Part shown: positions 184 to 54,452 of the stretch, in pieces | Layout: every line of letters starts with the position of its first letter | Numbering within the stretch: position 1 is the stretch's first letter | The notes under the pieces: model-generated | Database searches by the model: none | What the model saw: the letters and a program-made list of their open reading frames with translations, nothing else | Told to the model about the DNA's origin: nothing | Position numbers and translations under genes: made by a program | Assembly (NCBI GenBank): GCA_964513645.1 | Contig: CAZENF010000002.1 | Span: 142,072 to 206,071 of the forward strand | DNA: 64,000 nucleotides | DNA from: an uncultured Candidatus Saccharibacteria bacterium | Lineage (GTDB): Bacteria; Patescibacteriota; Minisyncoccia; 2-02-FULL-40-12; GWA2-44-9 | Direction of reading: 5' to 3'

Positions 184-903
184 ATGGATCTTGAACCTCA
201 AATCGTTTACGAAGACAAGAATTTGTTGGCAATCGATAAGCCCTTCGGCCTTATAACTCATCCTAAGAATAGGGACGATAAGAGCGAGAGCGTCGTTTCC
301 TGGCTTGTTTCCAAATATCCGGAAATTGAAAACATTGGAGAGCCGTTCATCGCTTCAGGTACGCCGATGCCCCGGGCAGGTGTAGTTCACCGGCTGGACA
401 GAGATACGTCCGGACTTTTGTTGGTTGCCAAAACAACCGAAGCTTTTGTATTCTTAAAAAATCTTTTTCAGACCAGGAAAATACAGAAACACTATCAGGC
501 CCTTGTCTCCGGCCACCTGAAAAATCCTTCAGGAATAATCGATTCCCCTCTCGGTCGGATAGGTCTAAAGAGAACAACAAAAATACAGGGCAAGAAACTT
601 ATTGACCAGAAAGAAGCCGTGACCGAATATAGAACTCTCAAAAAATTCGAAAAATTTACCCTTTTGGAAGTTCTGCCCAAGACCGGCCGAACGCACCAGA
701 TAAGGGTGCACCTTAATTCCATTGGTCACCCTGTTTGCGGAGATATGATTTACGGTTTTAAAAAAGCTGACAAACCCGAAGGACTAACCCGCCTTTTTCT
801 CCATGCCTATAAGCTCGAGTTCGCCACTCCCGACGGCAAGGCCTTAACCCTCGAAACTGACCTGCCCCAGGATTTACAAAATGTCCTAAATAAGCTACAA
901 TAG
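184..903 (+). CDS. RluA-family 23S rRNA pseudouridine synthase (RluD/RluC-like)
   Basis: 239-aa ORF with the HRLDRDTSGLLLVAKT catalytic motif and overall RluA-family layout. Starts 3 nt after tRNA-Val. Confidence 0.85.
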   Translation: MDLEPQIVYEDKNLLAIDKPFGLITHPKNRDDKSESVVSWLVSKYPEIENIGEPFIASGTPMPRAGVVHRLDRDTSGLLLVAKTTEAFVFLKNLFQTRKIQKHYQALVSGHLKNPSGIIDSPLGRIGLKRTTKIQGKKLIDQKEAVTEYRTLKKFEKFTLLEVLPKTGRTHQIRVHLNSIGHPVCGDMIYGFKKADKPEGLTRLFLHAYKLEFATPDGKALTLETDLPQDLQNVLNKLQ

Positions 904-2921: not shown

Positions 2922-3383
2922 ATGTTCCCAGTTAATATATTCTCAAAAGTAAGGACCGGCATAAATGAGCGGGTCCTTAATGCAGAACCGGGCTTGTATC
3001 TGTATATTGCATTTCCAATAGCTTTTGCTTTTCTCGTTACTTTTGTCTGTGCCAGGATATTAAGCCATGTTGACCCTGATGCATACATCCCCTGGTCCGG
3101 TATCCATGTTCATCATTTTGCATATGGATTTTTTATATTGGCCGCTGCCGGTTATCTGGCACTGGTTTTTTCGAGTCCCAGGGCTAAATTCTTTATCGCT
3201 CTTCTTCATGGCATAGGCTTAGGATTAGCTTTTGATGAATTCGGGATTTGGCTGCATCTGGATGACAGCGATCCGGCCAGGTTTAGTTATGATGGTTTTT
3301 TGATCGTGGTAGCCGGTTTTTTCCTATTAGTCACCATTAGACCGGGCCTAAAAATGGCCAAAAAACTGCTCAATTTGATGTAA
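2922..3383 (+). CDS. hypothetical polytopic membrane protein
   Basis: The track ORF at 2871 begins inside tRNA-Gly, so the first in-frame ATG after the tRNA is taken as start. Several hydrophobic helices. Start uncertain. Confidence 0.45.
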   Translation: MFPVNIFSKVRTGINERVLNAEPGLYLYIAFPIAFAFLVTFVCARILSHVDPDAYIPWSGIHVHHFAYGFFILAAAGYLALVFSSPRAKFFIALLHGIGLGLAFDEFGIWLHLDDSDPARFSYDGFLIVVAGFFLLVTIRPGLKMAKKLLNLM

Positions 3384-3403
3384 CAAGGGGTATTGACTTT
3401 TTG

Positions 3404-3437
3404 ACCCTGATTTGATACAATTAGAGCATAACCTGAA
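3404..3437 (+). promoter_or_regulatory. sigma70-like promoter (TTGACT-17-TACAAT)
   Basis: -35 ttgact, 17-nt spacer, -10 tacaat. Lies about 170 nt upstream of the 3D-domain gene. Confidence 0.5.
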
Positions 3438-3608
3438 ATATGGGTTATGTAACAAGTAATGGCTTTGATAGCCGTTTTTTGTTGCTCAAATCGCTTAAAA
3501 ATAACCTCACTTTGTAAACCGAGGCATCTATTGCGGAGCATCTCCGGGAGGGAGATAAGCCAAGCTATCTTGGCTGGCCTCTAAAACTGATTAATATCGG
3601 TCTACATC

Positions 3609-4175
3609 GTGACCATAATGGGTAAACGATTGAAGAGAACTTCAGCTTTCGCTCTTGTTCTTTTATATCAATTATCCTTTTCAGGAATTGCTTCAGCCGC
3701 TGGTAATTTCAGCAAATTAGCCAGTGACAGTACGTCTCTCCAGGTAAACATGGAAAACTTAGACGGACATACACTGTCTTCCAGCGAGAACACATGGGAT
3801 ATCATCAACCAAAACATACAGTTGCAGGCAAACCCGGTCCAATACCGCGTGTTAGGAACTTATAACATCTTAGCAACCGGATATACCGCCTCTCCTGAAC
3901 AAACAGACGACTCCCCTTGCGTAGCCGCAAGCGGATACAATATCTGTACAGGAGACGAGAATGTTATCGCTGCCAACTTCTACGTTAACGGCAAGAGAGT
4001 TCCTTTCGGAACTCTGGTAAGAATACCGTCCGTTTACGGAGACAAACTGTTCGTGGTTGAAGACAGAATGAACAGCCGCTATCACAACAATATTGATATA
4101 TTATTCTCTGATATACATGAAGCCAGACTATTCGGTGCTCAAAGACATAACATTGAAATAGTCGAGGAGATATAA
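3609..4175 (+). CDS. secreted 3D-domain protein (YabE/MltA-type cell-wall-binding/lytic domain)
   Basis: Signal peptide. C-terminal TGYTASPEQTDDSPC...NFYVNGKRVPFGTLVRIP...FVVEDRMNSRY... pattern of the 3D (three-Asp) domain. Confidence 0.7.
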   Translation: MTIMGKRLKRTSAFALVLLYQLSFSGIASAAGNFSKLASDSTSLQVNMENLDGHTLSSSENTWDIINQNIQLQANPVQYRVLGTYNILATGYTASPEQTDDSPCVAASGYNICTGDENVIAANFYVNGKRVPFGTLVRIPSVYGDKLFVVEDRMNSRYHNNIDILFSDIHEARLFGAQRHNIEIVEEI

Positions 4176-4250: not shown

Positions 4251-4616
4251 TTATAAATTTTTTGAGCTATTTTGAGAAAGAGTTTCTTTTTCAAATCTTA
4301 GAGTCTTGAAAATATAATAAGTGACGAGATACCAAAATACAAAAACTATCGACGCACCAAAATTATAACTTTCGATTGTAGTGAATATTTTAAATCCCGA
4401 GACAATGGTCCATAGAATCGCCAACAAAGTCAAAGATATCCTTGAACCTTTATATACAAAAAATAAAACCGGTCCATAGATAGCTATGGCCACCAAGAAG
4501 ATAGACTCTCCTTCTCTAAAACCTGTGATTAGTATCGCTATTATAAAGAATAAAATAATTTTAAATCGTCGAGATTTTATTTTCATAAATATTTGTCCGC
4601 CCACAAGGAATCTCAC
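4251..4616 (-). CDS. hypothetical small membrane protein
   Basis: 121-aa ORF with 3-4 hydrophobic helices. No homolog recognised. Confidence 0.4.
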   Translation of the reverse strand: MRFLVGGQIFMKIKSRRFKIILFFIIAILITGFREGESIFLVAIAIYGPVLFFVYKGSRISLTLLAILWTIVSGFKIFTTIESYNFGASIVFVFWYLVTYYIFKTLRFEKETLSQNSSKNL

Positions 4617-4786
4617 GTCGAAAAAGATTTGACTCGCAGACTATCAAATCTTTTTCTCCTTGAAACCTTGCGGTTTCAATACTTCCACCACGGGAAAGAA
4701 CTTTTCTTTCCCGACCCCTATCTTGTTCGAGTCCTTGTGGTCTACAAAAGACAAAACCAACTTAATGTCGGTTTTGTCTTTTGTTG

Positions 4787-4859
4787 TCCGCCCACAAGGA
4801 CTCGAACCTTGAACCGTATCCTTAAGAGGGATCTGCTCTACCAATTGAGCTATGGGCGG
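4787..4859 (-). tRNA. tRNA-Lys, anticodon CUU
   Basis: Minus strand: D-arm tagctcaattggtagagc, anticodon loop ctcttaa, T-arm caagg-ttcgagt-ccttg, acceptor ccgccca/tgggcgg. Confidence 0.65.
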
Positions 4860-4945: not shown

Positions 4946-5019
4946 GGGATTCGCTACTTCCTGCCTGCCCTCCTACGGCGGGTAAACCGGCAGGCAGGTA
5001 TCCGTTAAGCTACGGGCGC
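4946..5019 (-). ncRNA. unassigned 74-nt tRNA-sized structured element (not a canonical cloverleaf)
   Basis: Abuts tRNA-Arg. Contains a 10-bp GC stem cctgcctgcc/ggcaggcagg, a GGUUUACC segment and GGAAGUAGCG. Could not be folded as a tRNA. Strand uncertain. Confidence 0.3.
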
Positions 5020-11173: not shown

Positions 11174-12184
11174 ATGAATGTCAAGGAATCAAATGTTGCC
11201 GCCCAGGGCGTTTTAGATGACCAGGTTTTGGATCTGGCTTTACGGCCCAAGAATTTTCATGAATATGTCGGTCAGGATAAGATAAAAGACAATCTAAAAA
11301 TAATGATTGGGGCGGCCAAAAAGAGGGGTGAAATTATGGAGCACTTGCTCCTCCACGGCCCTTCCGGCTTGGGCAAAACCACCCTCGCCTATCTTATTGC
11401 CCGAGAGCTTGGCTCAGGTATCAAAATAACCTCGGGTACAGCGATTGAAAAGGCCGGAGACGTCGGTTCTATTCTTACTGGTTTAAACGACGGTGACGTC
11501 ATGTTCATAGATGAGGTTCACCGACTTAACAAGGCCGTGGAAGAGGTCATTTATCCGGCAATGGAGAATTTTAAGCTGGATATCATAATCGGCAAAGGTA
11601 CCTCGGCTAAAACTCTTCAGATAGACCTACCCAAGTTCACCCTTATCGCTGCTACAACCAAGATCTCAATGCTCTCAAGTCCTTTTCGTTCGCGTTTCGG
11701 CGTTAATTTCCGTTTGGACTTTTACAAGCAAAAAGACATCGAAAACATCGTTGCCCGTTCAGCTTCGCTTCTTCAAGTCAACATCGACAAGAGTGGAATT
11801 GAATCCATTGCGAAGTCTTCTCGGTTTACGCCCCGTATCGCCAATCGGCTATTAAAACGTGTCCGTGATTATGCCGAGGTTAAAGATCATAATTCCATAA
11901 ATGCTACCATCGCCGGAGAAGCCTTGAGCATGCTTGAAATAGACGACCAAGGTCTCGAAGAAACAGACCGCAAAATACTGACAACGATCGCGCAAACATT
12001 TGAAGGCGGTCCGGTCGGATTAAAAGCCGTGGCTGCAGCGATTTCTGAAGAAGAGAGTACAATTGAAGATGTTTATGAACCTTATCTCATTCAGATAGGT
12101 TTTATATCCAGAACACCCAAAGGCAGAGTTATTACTCGGGAAGGCAAAAAACATATAGGAATAAAGTCAGGTTTTGACATCTAA
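11174..12184 (+). CDS. ruvB: Holliday junction branch-migration helicase RuvB
   Basis: AAA+ Walker A LLHGPSGLGKTTLA, Walker B MFIDEVHRL and a RuvB C-terminal winged helix. Confidence 0.9.
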   Translation: MNVKESNVAAQGVLDDQVLDLALRPKNFHEYVGQDKIKDNLKIMIGAAKKRGEIMEHLLLHGPSGLGKTTLAYLIARELGSGIKITSGTAIEKAGDVGSILTGLNDGDVMFIDEVHRLNKAVEEVIYPAMENFKLDIIIGKGTSAKTLQIDLPKFTLIAATTKISMLSSPFRSRFGVNFRLDFYKQKDIENIVARSASLLQVNIDKSGIESIAKSSRFTPRIANRLLKRVRDYAEVKDHNSINATIAGEALSMLEIDDQGLEETDRKILTTIAQTFEGGPVGLKAVAAAISEEESTIEDVYEPYLIQIGFISRTPKGRVITREGKKHIGIKSGFDI

Positions 12185-12189
12185 CTCAC

Positions 12190-12696
12190 ATGAGCGGTCA
12201 CTCGAGATGGTCACAAATAAAGCATAAGAAAGCGACAACTGACAAAAAAAGAGGTCAGTTGTTTTCTAAACTCTCCAAACTGATCTCTCTCGCCGCCCGC
12301 AGAGGAACAAACCCTGAAACAAATCTTGAACTTAAAAGTGCCATAGAGCAGGCACGTTCTTTTAATGTTCCGAGCGATAATATTGAACGGGCCATAAAAA
12401 AGGTCTCCGACAAATCCGCCACCCAGCTTGAGGAGTTGTACATAGAAGCTCTGGGCCCTGGCGGAGTTGCCTTAAAAATTAAGGCCGTAACTGATAACAA
12501 AAACCGAACTATCGCTGAAGTTAAAAGTATTCTAACCGAAAATAGTTCAAAGATGGTCCAACCCGGAAGTATTTCCTGGATGTTCAATCAATCCATTAGC
12601 CTTGATTCGCCAGAAGTTCAGACTCAACTCGACAAACTTCTCGAAGCCCTCGACGACCAAGATGATGTTGAAGATGTGGTCTCAAACCTTAAATAA
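12190..12696 (+). CDS. YebC/PmpR-family probable transcriptional regulator (short, 168 aa)
   Basis: N-terminus MSGHSRWSQIKHKKATTDKKRG matches the YebC/TACO1 signature. Shorter than typical ~240 aa. Confidence 0.7.
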   Translation: MSGHSRWSQIKHKKATTDKKRGQLFSKLSKLISLAARRGTNPETNLELKSAIEQARSFNVPSDNIERAIKKVSDKSATQLEELYIEALGPGGVALKIKAVTDNKNRTIAEVKSILTENSSKMVQPGSISWMFNQSISLDSPEVQTQLDKLLEALDDQDDVEDVVSNLK

Positions 12697-40957: not shown

Positions 40958-41173
40958 TCCAAGATTGTTTCGCGATCTACTATACAATTTGAAATCTGAC
41001 CTTTGCCTTTTTTAGCAAAGCCAGAAGTTCATATTTGAATTCTACTAAAAAGCACAAACCTTAGCAATCCACACTGTGAACAATTCAAAATCGGGCCGCC
41101 GACCTGCCCGCCCTCCTTCGTCGGGTAAATTGGCAGGTAGAGAGTCGAACGAAACTGGAGTTTAAGTATTGAG

Positions 41174-41244
41174 TCGGGCCGCCGAGAATCGAACTCGGTC
41201 TTTACGCACCCGAAGCGTACGTACTACCGGCATACTCCGGCCCG
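41174..41244 (-). tRNA. tRNA-Pro, anticodon CGG
   Basis: Anticodon stem tacgc/gcgta, loop ttcgggt (G37), T-arm ccgag-ttcgatt-ctcgg, acceptor cgggccg/cggcccg. Confidence 0.7.
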
Positions 41245-41260
41245 ACTCAATACTTACTTG

Positions 41261-41698
41261 TTAGTTTTTCCCGGTACTGCCAAATCCGCCGCGGTTCTTA
41301 CTTTTCATTTTCGAAACTTCCTTAAAATCCGCTTTTAGATATTTTACAAAAATTCCTTGAGCTATCCGCAGACCCTTGGCTATCGTAACCGGTCGTCCGG
41401 TAAAATTAAAGGCTGGCATTTTGTATTCATCCTCATCTCCACAGTAATCCCAATCCCCTATTCCGATGCCATGGATAGGTAGAATGCCATGCTTATGCAT
41501 TGAGCCGCGCGCGGCCAGAAGCAACATGTATCCTTTCGGCGTCTCAACTGCGATGTTCAAAGGAATGTATCCTACCATGCCCGGAGCTATTTTTACAGTT
41601 TCTCTCGCGGTTAAATCAAATCCTGCCGCACCCACGGTCTTATATTCCGGCATGGGAATCTTCTTATCAAAGCGTTTAATCTTTACTTTCTCAGACAT
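41261..41698 (-). CDS. dut: dUTP diphosphatase
   Basis: AAGFDL motif and C-terminal RGGFGSTG (dUTPase motif 5). 145 aa. Confidence 0.8.
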   Translation of the reverse strand: MSEKVKIKRFDKKIPMPEYKTVGAAGFDLTARETVKIAPGMVGYIPLNIAVETPKGYMLLLAARGSMHKHGILPIHGIGIGDWDYCGDEDEYKMPAFNFTGRPVTIAKGLRIAQGIFVKYLKADFKEVSKMKSKNRGGFGSTGKN

Positions 41699-43124
41699 AG
41701 TATTTTTTCATTCTTTCTTTCTCTTCTTCCTCAACCGCTTTTTCAATACGTTCGAGAGCTTTCTTGAGTTCTTCTGCGGATTGCTTGTCGAGTTCGTGAA
41801 TGCGTTGCTCAAGATATTCTTTTTTGTTTTTAGAAGGGTCGTCGAGAACTTCGGCTAACAAAGAGTTAAGTATCAGACCGATCTTCGGCCCCGGTTTAAT
41901 CTTGAGCTCTTTCATTATGTCTTCTCCGTTGACCTTAAGCATCTTCGCCGAGATAGGGTCATGCGACACTTTATCAATTATATACTTCATGTGCCTTAGT
42001 TTGTAAGGCACGGCCTTGGGGCGGCCCGAACCGACACGGTCTGCTTCGCGGACCTTAAGTAGGTCTTCCATATTTTCTTTGCCGACATTGACCATCAGCC
42101 GTCTGACCGAAGACTCCGTCACCTCGCCGACATTGTAATAGAACAAGTGATAGCGGACCAGCTTGATGACCTTTTCGGAAATATCTTTTGGAAATTTAAG
42201 CCGCTCCATTATCTGGGCCGTAATTTTGCCGCCGACGACATCATGACCGTAGAAAGTTGAATACTTGCCTTCGCCTCTTTTGGTTTTGGGCTTGCCGATG
42301 TCATGGAACAGAGCGCCTAAGCGGACAGCTAAGGAATATTTTTTATCCACGGTATATTTTAAGGCCCGGGTATTGTGTTCCCAGACGGTATAAATGTGAT
42401 GAAGGTTTTGTCCAACGTCTATCCCCTCTCTTAATTCTGGAACGATGTATTTTAAGAGTCCGGTTTCCTCGAGAAGAAGAATTCCGTCATAAGCATTGTC
42501 CGATTCGATTATTTTTACAAACTCGTCCCTTATACGTTCTTTGGATATCGCTCTCAACCATTCGGAATTTTCTTTTATGGCTTCTAAAGTCTTTTCTTCT
42601 ATCTTAAAATCGAGAACTGTGGCAAAACGGACTGCTCTTAAAAGTCGCAAAGCATCTTCGGCGAATCTGTCCTCGGGTTTACCGACAGTTCTTATAACCT
42701 TTTTCTTTATATCCTCTTCTCCCTGGAACAAATCCACGCCTTTGCCATTAATGTCAAAGGCGATTGCATTAACTGTAAAATCACGGCGGGCCAGATCGTC
42801 TTCTAATTTGGATACGAATTTTATTTCTCCCGGATGCCGTTTGTCGGTATATTTACCTTCTATTCTGTAAGGAGTTATTTCAACGATGGATAATGACGTG
42901 TCTTCCGAGCCAGTCTTAACTCCAACCGTGCCGAAGGTATTCTCGTAAACATGTTCCGGAAATATTTTTTGTATCTCCTCGGGCTTGGCGTTGGTGGTCA
43001 CGTCCCAATCCTTAGGTTCTTTTTTCATTAACAAGTCGCGAACGCAGCCGCCGACAATATAGCCTTCATAGCCGGCTTTGGAAAGTTCCTGGAGTATGTT
43101 TTTGATTTCTTTGGGTAAGGTCAC
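41691..43124 (-). CDS. cca: CCA-adding tRNA nucleotidyltransferase with HD domain
   Basis: GGCVRDLLM...DWD nucleotidyltransferase head and HDIGKP HD motif. Confidence 0.8.
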   Translation of the reverse strand: MTLPKEIKNILQELSKAGYEGYIVGGCVRDLLMKKEPKDWDVTTNAKPEEIQKIFPEHVYENTFGTVGVKTGSEDTSLSIVEITPYRIEGKYTDKRHPGEIKFVSKLEDDLARRDFTVNAIAFDINGKGVDLFQGEEDIKKKVIRTVGKPEDRFAEDALRLLRAVRFATVLDFKIEEKTLEAIKENSEWLRAISKERIRDEFVKIIESDNAYDGILLLEETGLLKYIVPELREGIDVGQNLHHIYTVWEHNTRALKYTVDKKYSLAVRLGALFHDIGKPKTKRGEGKYSTFYGHDVVGGKITAQIMERLKFPKDISEKVIKLVRYHLFYYNVGEVTESSVRRLMVNVGKENMEDLLKVREADRVGSGRPKAVPYKLRHMKYIIDKVSHDPISAKMLKVNGEDIMKELKIKPGPKIGLILNSLLAEVLDDPSKNKKEYLEQRIHELDKQSAEELKKALERIEKAVEEEEKERMKKYYV

Positions 43125-45171: not shown

Positions 45172-45214
45172 TAACTGGGCCCACGCTCGGAATTTTTTAA
45201 AAAGTTCCGAGCGT

Positions 45215-45290
45215 GGGCCCATAGCTCAAAGGTTAGAGCCACCGGCTCATAATCGGTTGGTTCCTGGTTCAAGTCCAGGTGGGCCCACCA
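45215..45290 (+). tRNA. tRNA-Met (elongator), anticodon CAU, CCA encoded
   Basis: Anticodon stem accgg/tcggt, loop ctcataa, G1:C72. Lacks the initiator 3xGC anticodon stem. Confidence 0.65.
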
Positions 45291-45316: not shown

Positions 45317-45610
45317 ATGAAATTAGTACATCTGGTCGAAGCCATGGGTTCCGGTCAAAGCAACATGCCGCCTCAGATCGCAGAACTTCGAAAAACCAAG
45401 GTCGATGAGATCAAGGGCCTTCTCGAAGAGCACTACAAAAGAACTGATTGCAAGCATGATTTTCTTTCAGATGAATGCGGGGGAGTTTCTCTCGAGATGT
45501 TTCTTTACGACTTGCTCAATCATGAACCAGATCAGGATGAGTTAAATGCACTGAGCGGCGGACATGTCCCCGCTTTCCTTCAGCCCGGAGTTGGTGGTCG
45601 GTCAGCTTGA
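45317..45610 (+). CDS. hypothetical 97-aa protein in tRNA island (locally GC-richer)
   Basis: RBS aaggag 7 nt before ATG 45317. The 165-aa track ORF overlaps tRNA-Met, so its 5' part is rejected. No domain recognised. Confidence 0.4.
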   Translation: MKLVHLVEAMGSGQSNMPPQIAELRKTKVDEIKGLLEEHYKRTDCKHDFLSDECGGVSLEMFLYDLLNHEPDQDELNALSGGHVPAFLQPGVGGRSA

Positions 45611-45713: not shown

Positions 45714-45789
45714 GCACCCGTAACTCAGTTGGCAGAGTGCCTGACTTTTAATCAGGAGGTCGGGGGTTCAAATCCCTCCGGGTGCACCA
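45714..45789 (+). tRNA. tRNA-Lys, anticodon UUU, CCA encoded
   Basis: Acceptor gcacccg/cgggtgc, anticodon stem cctga/tcagg, loop cttttaa, T-loop ttcaaat. Confidence 0.75.
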
Positions 45790-45950
45790 AACTCACCTTC
45801 GTGAGTTTGGTGAGGATTTGAAAAGCGGAACCATATCGCAGTCAGCAGACTGAGATGGTGAGCTGGGGTTCTCGGAGTGAGATCTCAAATCACTCCTTGA
45901 GAACTCTGTCGACAGTTCGGCCGAGTGACCGGCGAGGCCGAAACTGGTGA

Positions 45951-45972
45951 CCAAATCCCTCCGGGTGCAATT
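45951..45972 (+). repeat. direct repeat of the tRNA-Lys(UUU) 3' end (18/18 nt caaatccctccgggtgca), att-site-like
   Basis: Exact copy of the T-arm/acceptor 3' half of the tRNA at 45767-45789, 160 nt downstream. No matching 5' half nearby. Confidence 0.6.
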
Positions 45973-45981
45973 CATTTTTGC

Positions 45982-46059
45982 GAGTCCGTAGCTCAGCTTG
46001 GACAGAGCACAAGCCTTCTAAGCCTGAGGCCGCAGGTTCGAATCCTGCCGGACTCGCCA
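45982..46059 (+). tRNA. tRNA-Arg, anticodon UCU, CCA encoded
   Basis: Acceptor gagtccg/cggactc, loop cttctaa, T-arm gcagg-ttcgaat-cctgc. One A:C mismatch in the anticodon stem. Confidence 0.55.
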
Positions 46060-46122
46060 TCCCCTCATTTGAGGGGATTCACTTTATTAATAATCGGCTA
46101 AATGATAAATTTTATTTAACTG

Positions 46123-46211: not shown

Positions 46212-46306
46212 GAAATAAAAACCGCTCTCGGAGTATTTTCGGCTACTTGTTGACTGAAGAGATTATTAATAGTATAATTATATTATAGCTATTTTGGAGG
46301 TTTCAG

Positions 46307-46528
46307 ATGCTACACAAAAGTCCGTCCGAGCTCTTAAAAGAATGTCGAAGAGAGTGCCTACTTCATTTACATGGGATGATGTCAGGTAGAATACATACTC
46401 GTCGACAGATAGAAAATTCGAAGAAAAAATGCGTATCGTTGAGGAGGAAGTATCTCGCCGCTCTTAAACGTAATCCCGGAATTGATTTATATGGGGAACG
46501 AGGGTTTCCTCCGAAAAAAATTTCTTAG
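46307..46528 (+). CDS. hypothetical small basic protein (73 aa)
   Basis: ORF with ggagg RBS 7 nt upstream. Rich in Arg/Lys/Cys. No homolog recognised. Confidence 0.3.
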   Translation: MLHKSPSELLKECRRECLLHLHGMMSGRIHTRRQIENSKKKCVSLRRKYLAALKRNPGIDLYGERGFPPKKIS

Positions 46529-46624
46529 AATATATAATTACGCCGACCTATTTGTCGGCTTTTTAATTTCTTAAAACCGCACCAAAATCAAAATTAATTT
46601 TCCAGATAATCCCGCTTCCGCAAA

Positions 46625-48973
46625 TTGACCCCACCTATAAATTATTATAGTATTTCAGCACTTTACCGTACCTTAAAAATGGTTTTTATGAGACTTGAAG
46701 ACCTCGACATTTCACCCAGTAAAATAGGTGAAACTGCAAATAGAGTTTTGGAGAGGGCTTTTGAAGAAGTTCGTCGACGGGAGCACGGTTTTCTTAACAC
46801 CGAACATTTATTCTTAGCCTATATCCAAACAGAATGGGATTTCTTTGCCGAGGTGATGCGGGACTTAGAAGTTAACCCCAATACTATTTTGCGGGCAATA
46901 GAGGAACATATGGATCGAGCCCCGGCTTCTAAACGTGAACCAAAAGTATCCCCTTCGGTTAAGCTTATTCTCAAGCTTGCCGTGCATAATGCTTCAAGGG
47001 CAGGAAGGTCGCAAGTAGAAGCATCCGACCTTTTTGGTGCTATCTTTGAAGAGACCCAGGGTCCGCCTGTATCAATTCTCCGACGTCATGGCGTTGAGCC
47101 GGATACTCTTATATCCCGAGTAAATTCCAGGATGCGTGACTTTGAACTCCGACAAGAGCGTCTGAAGAAAAAGTTCGAACTCCCACCGTTCCTTAAACAT
47201 TTCGGCACGAATCTTAATTTGCTTGCTCGTCAGGACAAAATACCGCCCGTATATTTCAGGGAAAAGGAAATTAGTCAGGCCATGGAAATTCTGTGTCACC
47301 GGGAGCGGCCCAACTCGGTCATTCTTATCGGCGAGCCCGGGGTCGGCAAGACCGCGGTTGTTGAAGGTTTGGCGAGTAAGATAGAGCTCGATCCGTCAGG
47401 TGTGCCGCTAAGACTAAGGGATTGTCAGATCGTAAATTTGGCCATGAATACCATGGTCGCCGGAACAATGTTAAGAGGAATGTTTGAAGACAGGATACAA
47501 AATGTTATTCGGGAGATCAAAGAAAAACCTAACCTCATTCTTTTCATCGATGAAGCTCATACTATGGTCGGGGCGGGTTCGGCTCTTGGTGCTCCAACTG
47601 ATGCGGCTAATGTTTTTAAATCAGTTATGGCTCGAGGAGAAATAAGAATTATTGCCGCTACAACCCTGACAGAGTACAAGGAATATATAGAAGAGGACGA
47701 GGCTCTTTCCAGAAGGATGAAACCTGTAATGGTAAGAGAGCCGACGATAGATGAGACCCGTAAGATCATATACATGCTCAAAGGCAGACTCGAAAGGAAT
47801 TACTCGGTAAAATTTACCGATGAAGCCATTGAAGCGGCTCTTGAAATGTCTCCCAGATATCTTCGGCATCTTCGTTTGCCGGACAAGATCGTCGGCTGGC
47901 TTGATACCGCTGCTGTCAAAGTTGAAATGTCAAGAAAATTGGAAGTTAAGCCCGAGAATATTATTAATGTTATTTCAGAGGCCTCACGAATCCCGGAGAA
48001 TATGGTTTTCAGAAATGTAAGTGAACAGTTCAAAGATATGGAACAAATTCTCGGTCGTAGAATTGTCGGCCAAAGGCATGCGATAGAAAAGGTTTCAAGC
48101 ACGATACGCCTGAACAAAGGACCGCTCAAGGACGGCTTTGATCGCCCCGACGGAGTTCTGCTATTTCTCGGCCCGACCGGTGTCGGCAAAACAGAATTAG
48201 CCAAATCATTGGCTGAATTTCTTTTTGGTGATGAAAAAAGGATGATTCGGATAGACATGTCAGAATATCAGGACGGCTCTGTCTCGGTAGACAAGCTCAT
48301 AGGTATGCCCCGCGGCATAGTCGGCTCTCAAAGAGGTGGCATTCTCACCAACCAACTTAAGGATAATCCTTATTCGGTAATTCTTCTGGACGAAGTAGAA
48401 AAAGCGGCTTCGAGTCTGTTGAATCTTTTTCTGCAGGCATTTGATGAGGGCTGGCTTACCGACGGACATGGCAAAAGAGTTTATCTTAGCGACGCGATTG
48501 TTATTATGACATCCAATATTGGTTCGAGATTTTTCCAGACCAACAAATGCGGTTTTTTAAGCAACAAGACTGATTTGAATCATGTCAAAGGCGATGTAAT
48601 GAAAGAACTTAACAAGCATTTTAGCCCCGAATTCAGGAACAGAATAGATGAGGTGATTATGTTTTCTCCCCTAACTCAAGATGAGGTAAGTGAAATTGCT
48701 AACAAATATATTAAAAAGACCGCCGATGTTTTAAAAGCAGCTGGAAAGACTCTAAAGATAACAACCGGTGCTTTTGAACATATAATTACGAACGGCCACA
48801 GTCATCAATTTGGAGCAAGGTTTTTGAAACGCTTTATAGACGATAAAATAAAAATTAAAGTTAACGACAACCTTAATAAAAATAGCTTTTTATTCGATAT
48901 TGGTCAGAATGGCGAACTTTTATTTGAAGCTGACGGACCTGAACTGCAAAACCGGATGATGGCGATGACATAG
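46625..48973 (+). CDS. ClpA/ClpC-type AAA+ unfoldase (two canonical NBDs)
   Basis: Clp_N-like N-terminus. NBD1 GEPGVGKTA / ILFIDEAHTMVGAG. NBD2 GPTGVGKTE / ILLDEVEKA. Possible ClpP-docking CGF tripeptide. Start may be the internal Met at 46688. Confidence 0.8.
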   Translation: MTPPINYYSISALYRTLKMVFMRLEDLDISPSKIGETANRVLERAFEEVRRREHGFLNTEHLFLAYIQTEWDFFAEVMRDLEVNPNTILRAIEEHMDRAPASKREPKVSPSVKLILKLAVHNASRAGRSQVEASDLFGAIFEETQGPPVSILRRHGVEPDTLISRVNSRMRDFELRQERLKKKFELPPFLKHFGTNLNLLARQDKIPPVYFREKEISQAMEILCHRERPNSVILIGEPGVGKTAVVEGLASKIELDPSGVPLRLRDCQIVNLAMNTMVAGTMLRGMFEDRIQNVIREIKEKPNLILFIDEAHTMVGAGSALGAPTDAANVFKSVMARGEIRIIAATTLTEYKEYIEEDEALSRRMKPVMVREPTIDETRKIIYMLKGRLERNYSVKFTDEAIEAALEMSPRYLRHLRLPDKIVGWLDTAAVKVEMSRKLEVKPENIINVISEASRIPENMVFRNVSEQFKDMEQILGRRIVGQRHAIEKVSSTIRLNKGPLKDGFDRPDGVLLFLGPTGVGKTELAKSLAEFLFGDEKRMIRIDMSEYQDGSVSVDKLIGMPRGIVGSQRGGILTNQLKDNPYSVILLDEVEKAASSLLNLFLQAFDEGWLTDGHGKRVYLSDAIVIMTSNIGSRFFQTNKCGFLSNKTDLNHVKGDVMKELNKHFSPEFRNRIDEVIMFSPLTQDEVSEIANKYIKKTADVLKAAGKTLKITTGAFEHIITNGHSHQFGARFLKRFIDDKIKIKVNDNLNKNSFLFDIGQNGELLFEADGPELQNRMMAMT

Positions 48974-53540: not shown

Positions 53541-54452
53541 TTACTTTTTATTATGGAACTTTTCATGAACTTCTTTTAGCTGTTTATCGGTAACGTGAGT
53601 ATATATTTGAGTGGTTGTGACCGAGGCGTGACCGAGCATAGCTTGGACCGAACGGATATCCGCTCCGTTCCGAAGCAGGTCAGTCGCAAAGGAATGCCGT
53701 AAAGTATGCGGAGAGATCTTCTTGCCTAAAATCCCCGCTTTTATGGAATATTTTTTTATTATACGTTGAATACTTCGCGGGGTAAGTCTTAGGTCTGAAT
53801 CCTTTGAGAAGTTTACTGTTTTAGGAATACGGATAAATAATGCCTCGTCAACGTCGGTCCTCTTCTGGACATAATCACTTATGTTTTTTCTGGCGAGGTC
53901 GGAAAGAAATACCACCCGGATCTTTGAACCTTTGCCTCTGACGGACAACTCTCCCCTTTTCAGATCTATCTCATCCCGATTCAGGGAGCAAAGTTCTGAA
54001 ACTCTCATCCCAGTACTGAAAAGAGTTGTAAGGATGGCCCGGTCACGCAAACTATCCAAACTACCATCCTCGGCTGCTCCAAAAAGCCGGCTAAGTTCTT
54101 CTGGCTGAAGAAAAGTAACTTCCCGGTCTTCCTGTTTGCCTAATTCTACCCGCTCGGCAGGGACAGTTTTTATACCTGTTTTGGCCAGATATTTAAGAAA
54201 ATTCCGGAGGGTAATTATGTGATAATTCTGGGTTATTTTTTTGAGTGGCCTATCATTTACGTCCCGTAACCTGTTCAGGTGAAGCCGATATTGACGGACG
54301 AGTTCTTCGTCCAACTGGTTTATATTTTTTATCTTGGCAAAGTTCAAAAAACGGTCCAGATAACGGCCATAATTCTCGAGTGTTTTAAGTGACTTGTTCT
54401 TCTCTATTTCGAGGTACTCGAGGTAACGGATTTTGAGTTCTTTGACATCCAT
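53541..54452 (-). CDS. tyrosine site-specific recombinase XerC/XerD family
   Basis: C-terminal R...HxxR...Y catalytic pattern (LRHSFATDLLRNGADIRSVQAMLGHASVTTTQIYTHV) and an N-terminal SAM-like core-binding domain. Confidence 0.85.
   Translation of the reverse strand: MDVKELKIRYLEYLEIEKNKSLKTLENYGRYLDRFLNFAKIKNINQLDEELVRQYRLHLNRLRDVNDRPLKKITQNYHIITLRNFLKYLAKTGIKTVPAERVELGKQEDREVTFLQPEELSRLFGAAEDGSLDSLRDRAILTTLFSTGMRVSELCSLNRDEIDLKRGELSVRGKGSKIRVVFLSDLARKNISDYVQKRTDVDEALFIRIPKTVNFSKDSDLRLTPRSIQRIIKKYSIKAGILGKKISPHTLRHSFATDLLRNGADIRSVQAMLGHASVTTTQIYTHVTDKQLKEVHEKFHNKK

Follow-up and report, generated by a model that had tools for sequence, protein, structure and literature searches.

A short, structured insert behind a tRNA-Lys gene of a Candidatus Yanofskybacteria chromosome as a possible miniature integrative element

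How did a tRNA-Lys(UUU) gene come to be followed, about 160 nt downstream, by an exact copy of its own 3' end, and what is the segment that lies between the two copies? The locus belongs to a 64-kb stretch of DNA, which was analysed as a whole and is hereafter called the window. An earlier reading of the letters alone (the sequence-only reading) had offered three options for the enclosed segment, i.e., a decayed remnant of an integrated element, a miniature non-autonomous integrative element, or a tRNA-derived small RNA. The second of these gives the best fit to the results of this study. In the explanation preferred here, to which we assign a probability of roughly 55%, positions 45787-45969 represent a mini integrative element that lacks open reading frames (ORFs), is non-autonomous, belongs to a structured family and is co-transcribed with the tRNA operon in which it resides.

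The tRNA-Lys(UUU) gene and the repeat of its 3' end

The features that define the locus are the following.

45714-45789, plus strand: tRNA-Lys(UUU) gene, detected by ARAGORN, intact, with an encoded CCA at 45787-45789
45769-45786, plus strand: repeat copy 1 (S1), tRNA-Lys positions 56-73, CAAATCCCTCCGGGTGCA
45952-45969, plus strand: repeat copy 2 (S2), tRNA-Lys positions 56-73 without the CCA, an exact CAAATCCCTCCGGGTGCA (18/18 nt)
45970-45981, plus strand: ancestral spacer between tRNA-Lys and tRNA-Arg, ATTCATTTTTGC, aligned to the corresponding spacer of a relative (contig L205, see below)
45982-46059, plus strand: tRNA-Arg(UCU) gene
46059-46078, plus strand: terminator-like hairpin after tRNA-Arg(UCU)

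The tRNA gene was also recognized by the Rfam tRNA model (75 bits, 45714-45786). The sequence CAAATCCCTCCGGGTGCA occurs exactly twice in the 64-kb window, both times on this strand, and still only at these two places when up to 3 mismatches are allowed, and the expectation for such a repeat by chance, estimated from shuffles, was 0.01. Copy 2 starts 166 nt past the discriminator of tRNA-Lys, i.e., 162 nt past its CCA, and stops at the discriminator base, where ATTC follows instead of CCA. The encoded CCA of tRNA-Lys(UUU) constitutes at the same time the first bases of the first hairpin of the insert (hairpin A, below). With one repeat copy counted in, the element extends over 45787-45969 (183 bp). 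The intact tRNA and its exact 18-nt 3' copy, as described by the sequence-only reading, were thus confirmed.

The same is true for the absence of an integrase, since the 162-nt insert holds no genes. Its longest ORFs, of 60 and 56 aa, are both on the minus strand and were taken as spurious. With both repeats kept and no genes inside, the insert agrees with the structural part of the definition of a cis-mobilizable element (CIME), i.e., attL and attR without genes for integration or transfer, and the repeat reaches the end of the tRNA-Lys gene, as in an attachment-site (att) scar. CIMEs are moreover products of the decay of an ICE or IME and depend for excision on the integrase of a related element; no larger relative of the insert was found.

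The empty site in a relative

The window contains dnaA, dnaN, the genes for trigger factor and PBP1, nusA, ruvB, tyrS, pilB, uvrD, infB and genes for PNPase, two Clp ATPases and a CCA-adding enzyme; with these housekeeping genes and 20 tRNA genes it is part of a bacterial chromosome. The CCA-adding enzyme had more than 100 homologues at 74-86% identity; several of these, with 75-86%, carry the name Candidatus Yanofskybacteria, and on this similarity the host is a bacterium of the candidate phyla radiation (CPR, Patescibacteria) and of Candidatus Yanofskybacteria. Four contigs from JGI, ENA and NCBI (L205-L208, 4 of 19 similar places) carry the closest homologue of the enzyme, at 86% identity. 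They are syntenic with the window and share with it the cluster of tRNA-Met, a small ORF, tRNA-Leu(UAA), tRNA-Lys(UUU), tRNA-Arg(UCU) and tRNA-Ser(CGA). A scan of a genome collection with ClpC as the anchor was given up, as it returned loci of Acidobacteria and similar organisms with 56-73% identity and without synteny.

In L205 the distance between tRNA-Lys and tRNA-Arg is 11 nt, whereas it is 192 nt in the window. The alignment shows a single gap of about 183 nt in L205, and the window spacer ATTCATTTTTGC aligns to the L205 spacer TTCTCTTTTGC. Because the spacer behind copy 2 is homologous to the spacer of the empty site, copy 2 occupies the place of the original tRNA end. Like copy 2, the tRNA-Lys gene of the sister genome lacks an encoded CCA. 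By this comparison the extra DNA is an insertion in the window or, read in the opposite direction, a precise loss in L205. The claim of an insertion at the tRNA 3' end bounded by the repeat is therefore upheld by the orthologous site of L205, which is empty with a spacer of 11 nt.

The sequence-only reading had also suggested a foreign island with a divergent tRNA-Leu, and this has to be abandoned. L205 shows the same order Met-Leu(UAA)-Lys-Arg-Ser, and the tRNAs are therefore ancestral and not foreign. The parts that vary between the compared relatives are the pieces between the tRNAs, i.e., a 97-aa ORF, the 162-nt insert and a cassette with a 73-aa ORF. Wholesale foreign replacement of tRNA-Lys and tRNA-Ser was also considered and rejected: the two genes have 70% and 63-64% identity to their sister genes and are not clear outliers among the other orthologous tRNAs, for which identity to the sister genomes ranges from 64% to 96%.

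No promoter-like or terminator-like site was found within the insert. In L205, too, the sequence that aligns behind tRNA-Arg reads as a hairpin and then a T-run. With no such signal inside and a terminator-like hairpin after tRNA-Arg, the insert is expected to be co-transcribed with tRNA-Leu, tRNA-Lys and tRNA-Arg.

The fold of the insert

The predicted RNA fold of 45787-45975 has a free energy of -83.5 kcal/mol (z = -5.98), and none of 200 shuffles was as stable. For the reverse strand the values are -72.1 kcal/mol and z = -4.5; the sense strand is ahead by 11 kcal/mol, which, as far as modelled energies go, agrees with a role for the sense strand. The predicted architecture consists of hairpin A and a four-way junction, the latter closed by pairing of GAGGAUUUG (45812-45820) with copy 2.

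45785-45812, plus strand: hairpin A, CACCAAACTCAC / GTGAGTTTGGTG, 12 perfect pairs (45785-45796 with 45801-45812), loop CTTC
45812-45822, plus strand: antisense segment GAGGATTTGAA, complement of tRNA-Lys positions 54-65 (TTCAAATCC-CTC) with one bulge
45824-45864, plus strand: helix P2 (AGC/GCU) and hairpin B, from minimum-free-energy (MFE) folds, loop AGCA, with the conserved GTCAGMAGAC
45865-45907, plus strand: hairpin C, which matches an extra segment of about 40 nt (45870-45909) that is absent from the homologue in a relative
45908-45951, plus strand: helix P4 (GUC/GAC) and hairpin D, with the conserved loop CCGAGYGRCCGGCGAGG and a conserved terminal GTGAC

Hairpin A incorporates the final bases of tRNA-Lys. 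The nested stems pointed out from the letters alone recur in this fold, ctcac/gtgag within the 12-bp hairpin A and gttctc[ggagtga..tcactcc]gagaac as hairpin C. Hairpin C contains a degenerate third copy of the tRNA-Lys end (CAAATCACTCCTTGAGAA, 45886-45903, 13/18), paired with its own antisense, which hints at a nested or earlier insertion inside the element.

In searches of the window and L214 inserts (L214 is described below) against Rfam 15, the tRNAs alone reached the threshold and nothing credible was found on the inserts; ribozyme, intron and guide-RNA families gave no score on the insert even at E values up to 10. A group I intron, which in a tRNA gene would sit in the anticodon loop, contain a P3-P8 core and leave the exon unduplicated, was accordingly rejected, as the insert lies past position 73, no intron family matches to E 10 and the tRNA is complete without splicing.

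A homologue behind tRNA-Ser and the covariation of the stems

A second copy was found in another relative, contig L214 (GCA_034680565.1), with a CCA-adding enzyme 83% identical to that of the window. Its genes are arranged in the order tRNA-Met, tRNA-Ser(CGA), about 310 nt and ClpC, and by alignment this 310-nt trailer of tRNA-Ser contains a clear homologue of the window insert. From 5' to 3' it is composed as follows.

First part: hairpin GCAAACCAAC..TTGGTTTGC, homologous to hairpin A, with 3 compensatory changes
Second part: antisense CAGGACTTGAA, the exact complement of TTCAAGTCCTG in tRNA-Ser
Third part: GAAAGGCGGA, then a hairpin with GTCAGAAGAC
Fourth part: GAGCCGGGGT, then a hairpin with the loop CCGAGCGGCCGGCGAGG
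End: GTGAC, then CAAGCCTCTACCCTC, which copies the 3' part of tRNA-Ser imperfectly from position 56 on

When folded separately, the two copies adopt the same architecture, the sole difference being the hairpin C segment of about 40 nt in the window. In a structural alignment made with hairpin C removed, all 32 pairs are standard in both copies and 15 of them are altered on both sides. When the partners were slid by 1-3 columns, only 0-1 such pairs were left, and none of 500 shuffles reached the observed value. Two-sided changes affect 7 of the 14 pairs in P2 and hairpin B and 7 of the 13 in P4 and hairpin D; hairpin A adds 3 further compensatory changes (total 15-18), and the loops are nearly invariant. 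Variable stems combined with constant loops indicate, in this comparison of sequences, that selection acts on a single strand in its folded form. The pair was also used to build a covariance model, which scored the two copies at 83 and 136 bits and found only these two in 224 kb of Yanofskybacteria DNA.

The sequence-only reading had set against an insertion the case that all relatives carry the same arrangement with covariation in the insert. The two halves of this case fared differently: the relatives are not all alike, which favours insertion, and the insert does covary, which points to a structure under selection.

Sense and antisense copies of the target tRNA

The elements of the window and of L214, and a third one behind tRNA-Lys(CUU) of the window (described below), each combine a downstream sense copy of the tRNA end with an antisense segment. 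In the cognate tRNA the antisense segments complement the T-loop together with the 3' strand of the T-stem, with exact matches of 9, 11 and 16 nt. In the two homologues the tRNA-identical end begins at position 56, straight after the conserved GTGAC, and the antisense covers positions 54-64/65 of the own tRNA. Only these terminal sense and antisense segments are tRNA-like and the core is not, which argues against the earlier suggestion of a tRNA-derived small RNA.

The antisense segment GAGGATTTGAA of the window is predicted to form helix P1 with copy 2 or, alternatively, to fold back on the T-loop side of its own tRNA. In all three elements the antisense fits the T-arm of the own tRNA better than the distal copy. 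In the MFE fold of the whole precursor (-122.4 kcal/mol) the distal copy is the partner of the 5' acceptor strand, and with the own acceptor stem forced the energy is -115.5 kcal/mol; these energies ignore co-transcriptional folding and tertiary structure and are taken only as showing that both states of the precursor could be reached.

Copies of the 3' end behind other tRNA genes

The arrangement is not unique to tRNA-Lys(UUU): a scan of the 20 window tRNAs for downstream copies ending at the discriminator +/- 3 nt detected four cases.

Lys(UUU): copy of 18 nt, +166 downstream
Lys(CUU): copy of 17 nt, +178 downstream
Pro(CGG): copy of 12 nt, +72 downstream
Ser(CGA): copy of 12 nt, +402 downstream

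A weak fifth case, a 10-nt match to tRNA-Leu(UAA) at 46222-46231, just past tRNA-Ser, could be due to chance. With this weak match included, 6 of the 53 tRNAs of the Yanofskybacteria loci are followed by a copy that measures 10 nt or more and extends to the tRNA end. Among control tRNAs from unrelated metagenome loci the number was 3/143, and every one of the three was the next tandem tRNA gene. The repeat lengths differ by tRNA (18, 17, 12, 12 and 10 nt), so there is no fixed target duplication. A casposon or a transposon with staggered cuts was rejected on the ends of the insert, CCAAACTCACC... and ...AAACTGGTGAC, which are not inverted repeats.

The inserts at the other three tRNA genes of the window are composed as follows.

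4593-4785, minus strand: element behind tRNA-Lys(CUU) (tRNA at 4786-4859), another sequence family with the same architecture
4725-4740, minus strand: antisense CCACAAGGACTCGAAC of this element, perfect complement of tRNA positions 53-68
4593-4609, minus strand: sense copy TCCTTGTGGGCGGACAA of this element
41091-41172, minus strand: insert behind tRNA-Pro(CGG) (tRNA at 41173-41244), with the 12-nt copy TCGGCGGCCCGA as its end (41091-41102)
46212-46621, plus strand: insert behind tRNA-Ser(CGA), a mini-cassette with a 73-aa ORF
46250-46278, plus strand: promoter-like site of the cassette, TTGACT-17-TATAAT
46307-46528, plus strand: 73-aa ORF of the cassette, no family match
46542-46559, plus strand: terminator-like hairpin of the cassette
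46610-46621, plus strand: distal 12-nt copy TCCCGCTTCCGC, immediately before the conserved promoter region of ClpC

The Lys(CUU) element shows the order long hairpin, antisense, three hairpins and sense copy (fold z = -9.2), and its end, TTCGACGTGAGATTCCT, recurs in L214. Both tRNA-Lys genes of the window thus bear an element of the type hairpin, antisense, hairpins and sense copy. At the place in L214 that is equivalent to the distal Ser(CGA) copy, before the ClpC promoter region, stands the last partial copy of that locus, CCCTCCGC. Searches of the small ORFs as candidate excisionase or toxin genes gave no match in Pfam, PHROG or NCBIfam.

Partial tRNA copies are also present elsewhere at these loci. 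In L214, four partial copies of the tRNA-Ser end are arranged serially at 3285-3600 (minus strand). L205 contains tRNA debris (11946-12030 and 12392-12500) with the 5' half of tRNA-Ala(CGC) behind tRNA-Pro; its tRNA-Ala(CGC) is followed by a 10-nt 3' copy, and the trailer also holds an exact antisense of the tRNA leader and the 5' acceptor strand. A 34-nt hairpin motif, CTGCCNNTTTACCCGNCGNAGGAGGGCNGGCAGG, occurs twice in the window (0 expected), at 41103-41136 and 4960-4993 (both minus strand). The former adjoins the 3' copy behind tRNA-Pro, and the latter is found shortly before tRNA-Arg(UCG) and follows a stretch (4997-5017) that copies the 5' end of that tRNA in 17/21 positions. The motif has no match in Rfam and may represent a third family of small elements, always beside a partial tRNA.

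A possible route of entry and the points against it

The repeat of the tRNA end, the empty site in L205 and the serial partial copies in L214 fit site-specific integration into tRNA genes and tandem accretion, both of which are established (PMC5704250; PMC9897764; bioRxiv 10.1101/2020.12.28.424599). The small size, the lack of a gene, the conserved fold and the antisense copy fall outside the picture of an att scar, and for this reason the segment is read as a structured mini integrative element. Its entry would have taken place by site-specific recombination between an element-borne copy of the last 18 nt of the tRNA and the tRNA gene. The original 3' end would have been displaced and become copy 2, and the element would have supplied the new 3' end and, incidentally, the CCA. 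The recombinase would have to act in trans, since the element encodes nothing. The junctions under this model would be GGGTGCA-ATTCATTTTT for the empty site and GGTGAC-CAAATCCCTCCGGGTGCA-CCAAAC for the circle. After transcription, the end-processing of the tRNA would release the element as a structured RNA of ~190 nt. The fold and the sense/antisense pair may serve the element itself, the likeliest role being the presentation of the attachment site as a folded strand, or as RNA.

Several points weigh against this explanation. A double-stranded circle of 183 bp would be a poor substrate for recombination, and no integrase, transposase or reverse transcriptase was found in or beside the element. 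The only recombinase of the window is a 303-aa XerC/D/XerA-like protein (53541-54452), 8 kb away; the gene neighbourhood (M23 peptidase, PNPase) recurs around a similar recombinase gene in the contig of a relative, and by its sequence context the protein is probably a housekeeping enzyme. The antisense target copy in each element is left unexplained by classical att scars. The covariation comes from one pairwise comparison in which the structure was derived from the same two sequences, and gain in the window and loss in L205 are separable only with an outgroup that has the site.

Moreover, the searches of viral contigs, phages and plasmids revealed neither an autonomous parent nor a free form with an attP. 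BLAST searches against phages and plasmids returned nothing on the insert, and four motif scans and the covariance model on viral contigs yielded only chance matches inside coding regions. A viral scan with CAAATCCCTCCGGGTGCA led to two tRNA-Leu genes of phages and to a single place between tail genes of contig L084, which was considered as an attP and dismissed as chance. A metagenome scan with the same sequence gave 120 loci, mostly unrelated tRNA-Arg and tRNA-Leu genes that share the 3' end and a few non-tRNA sequences; none of them had two copies of CAAATCCCTCCGGGTGCA or a sequence homologous to any of the trailers.

Alternative explanations

It is conceivable, but unlikely, that the trailer is a host RNA module, i.e., a three-part switch on tRNA maturation in which the antisense segment pairs with the T-loop side of its own tRNA, so that the precursor would misfold, or with the downstream decoy copy, so that the tRNA would be released. 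The outcome could be control of processing or of 3'-end stability, or a stable small RNA that has its own function. Several of the results described above would suit such a device: the fold is conserved by covariation, the element lies within the tRNA operon and on the tRNA strand, the sense strand is more stable than the antisense strand, the antisense prefers the own T-arm over the distal copy in all three elements, the precursor fold with the distal copy has the lower energy (-122.4 vs -115.5 kcal/mol), and both tRNA-Lys genes of the window bear an element of this kind. However, it is absent at the orthologous tRNA-Lys of the sister genome and its homologue sits at another tRNA, whereas a required device would stay in place. 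Further, no Rfam family matches, and the MFE comparisons ignore co-transcriptional folding and the tertiary structure of the tRNA.

An RNA-guided or RNA-mobile element, in which the antisense would act as a guide to the T-loop region of tRNA genes or transcripts, appears rather improbable. Insertion would then proceed by a ribozyme-like or bridge-RNA-like route or by reverse transcription, not by a protein-only att reaction. Every structured copy does have a target-complementary segment tuned to its own tRNA, the combination of a scaffold and a terminal target match resembles guide RNAs, and the fold is kept while the sequence drifts. The CCA after copy 1, which is missing at copy 2 and in the sister gene, would fit copying from a mature tRNA. 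However, it could equally well be there as the beginning of hairpin A, where L214 has GCAAAC and the window CCAAAC, and in the Lys(CUU) and Pro elements the junction is without a CCA. Among the window ORFs scanned, i.e., all but one of those of at least 180 aa and three smaller ones, none was recognized as a reverse transcriptase or as an IS110-type, TnpB or IscB protein, and ribozyme, intron and guide-RNA families remained without a match at permissive thresholds.

The segment could also be an inert scar, formed by the residual arms of a larger element (prophage or integrative plasmid) after loss of the interior, with incidental hairpins. Textbook scars of this kind show a direct repeat of the tRNA 3' end (PMC9897764; bioRxiv 10.1101/2020.12.28.424599), no integrase is present inside the segment, and tRNA debris is abundant at the flanks of tRNAs (the 5' half of tRNA-Ala in L205, the serial tRNA-Ser copies in L214). 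On the other hand, a homologue of the same size and with the same ends and fold stands at another tRNA in another genome and differs by 15 compensatory changes, with constant loops; neutral decay does not preserve pairing, and two independent decays would not arrive at the same form. The fold z value of -6 also argues against incidental hairpins. An inert scar, and with it the decayed remnant considered from the letters alone, is accordingly held to be quite unlikely.

An assembly artefact or a chance repeat is highly improbable: the window does come from a metagenome-type assembly and a Logan contig that represents the same strain has a break within the adjacent tRNA-Leu, but the chance expectation is 0.01, an 18-nt repeat is, by reasoning only, below the usual k-mers of assemblers and no chimeric join is expected from it, and the same arrangement with a homologous core occurs in the independent assembly of another species.

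Comparison with known systems

The mini integrative element proposed here resembles CIMEs and other tRNA-targeted elements in its intact tRNA, its insert, the direct repeat of the 3' part up to the gene end and the empty site in a relative, and the serial partial copies in L214 resemble tandem accretion. However, it is a hundredfold smaller (183 bp vs kilobases), without sign of deletion from a larger element, and it has a covarying multi-helix fold, an antisense target copy and no known cognate integrase.

Casposons are inserted by Cas1 at the 3' end of tRNA-Pro with a duplication of ~15 bp, the target including the segment that encodes the T-loop (PMC5137440). Their termini are inverted repeats, and their duplication has a fixed length of 15 bp, of which only 5 bp belong to the tRNA (PMC5137440). 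Insertion at a tRNA 3' end with direct duplication is common to both; in contrast, the window element lacks inverted termini, and its repeat lies inside the tRNA and is of a type that varies from 10 to 18 nt. No Cas1 match was found among the window ORFs scanned against Pfam.

The attC sites of integrons and the attP hairpin of the CTX phage, which is used by XerCD, are recombination sites that work as folded single strands. As in these, structure is conserved over sequence, a duplex version of the target is regenerated within a hairpin (in the window the sense and antisense T-loop), and there is no ORF or one small ORF. The window element differs in that it has neither an integron integrase nor R/L boxes and its target is a tRNA gene rather than attI or dif. 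The likeness is one of form only.

Omega RNAs of TnpB/IscB and bridge RNAs of IS110 elements are likewise structured RNAs of ~150 nt at the edge of an element, with a terminal or internal stretch that matches the element's own target. The window element, in contrast, is not accompanied by a nuclease or recombinase gene and matches nothing in Rfam; an 18-nt target duplication is not made by the known elements, and the matching segments of the window element pair mutually. This likeness, too, is one of form only.

Full-text literature searches found no description of such elements, which does not prove their absence. A bolder proposal would be an undescribed class of ORF-less, RNA-structured mobile elements in which an internal antisense guide pairs with the T-loop region of tRNA genes or transcripts, insertion occurs at the 3' end and the precursor is bistable, its acceptor stem closing on one or the other 3' end; in this full form the proposal is unlikely to be correct.

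Prophages and genomic islands classically integrate at the ends of tRNA genes, and the elements known to do so are kilobases long and bring their own integrase. Elements of the type described here have 120-180 bp, no gene, a conserved fold and both sense and antisense copies of the target. If the interpretation is true, they would be among the smallest site-specific mobile elements of bacteria that we know of, and the reduced genomes of CPR bacteria would hold a mobile layer that is invisible to gene-based annotation. They would also place a stable, structured RNA in a tRNA operon, where a precursor with two partners for the acceptor stem could affect tRNA maturation. The sense/antisense design predicts that the target is recognized by pairing and that the site is presented on a folded strand.

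Other observations at the tRNA cluster

The 97-aa ORF between tRNA-Met and tRNA-Leu (45317-45610, plus strand) had itself as the sole match in 5.8 billion proteins. The slot behind tRNA-Met is occupied by a non-homologous 97-aa ORF in L205 (7644-7937, minus strand) and by only 26 nt in a further contig, L220, and is therefore likewise variable in this comparison; no repeat of the tRNA-Met end was seen around it. The long hairpin that closes the upstream gene includes the 5' acceptor strand of tRNA-Met in the window (45176-45221), in L220 (about 449-493, minus strand) and in L214 (about 3910-3985, minus strand), with stem sequences that differ in the three genomes. Leaders and trailers that pair with acceptor strands of tRNAs seem to be common in this lineage.

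The ClpC-like ATPase downstream of the cluster (46688-48973, plus strand) has its best non-self match at 70% identity, and many of the matches at 67-70% are named Acidobacteria or Vicinamibacterales. The Yanofskybacteria relative L214 has a ClpC in the corresponding place, to which the identity is only 64%, and these values suggest that horizontal exchange of clpC is possible. The CCA end is encoded in 7 of the 20 tRNA genes of the window and not in the other 13, and the gene of the CCA-adding enzyme (41691-43124) is located amid the tRNA clusters.

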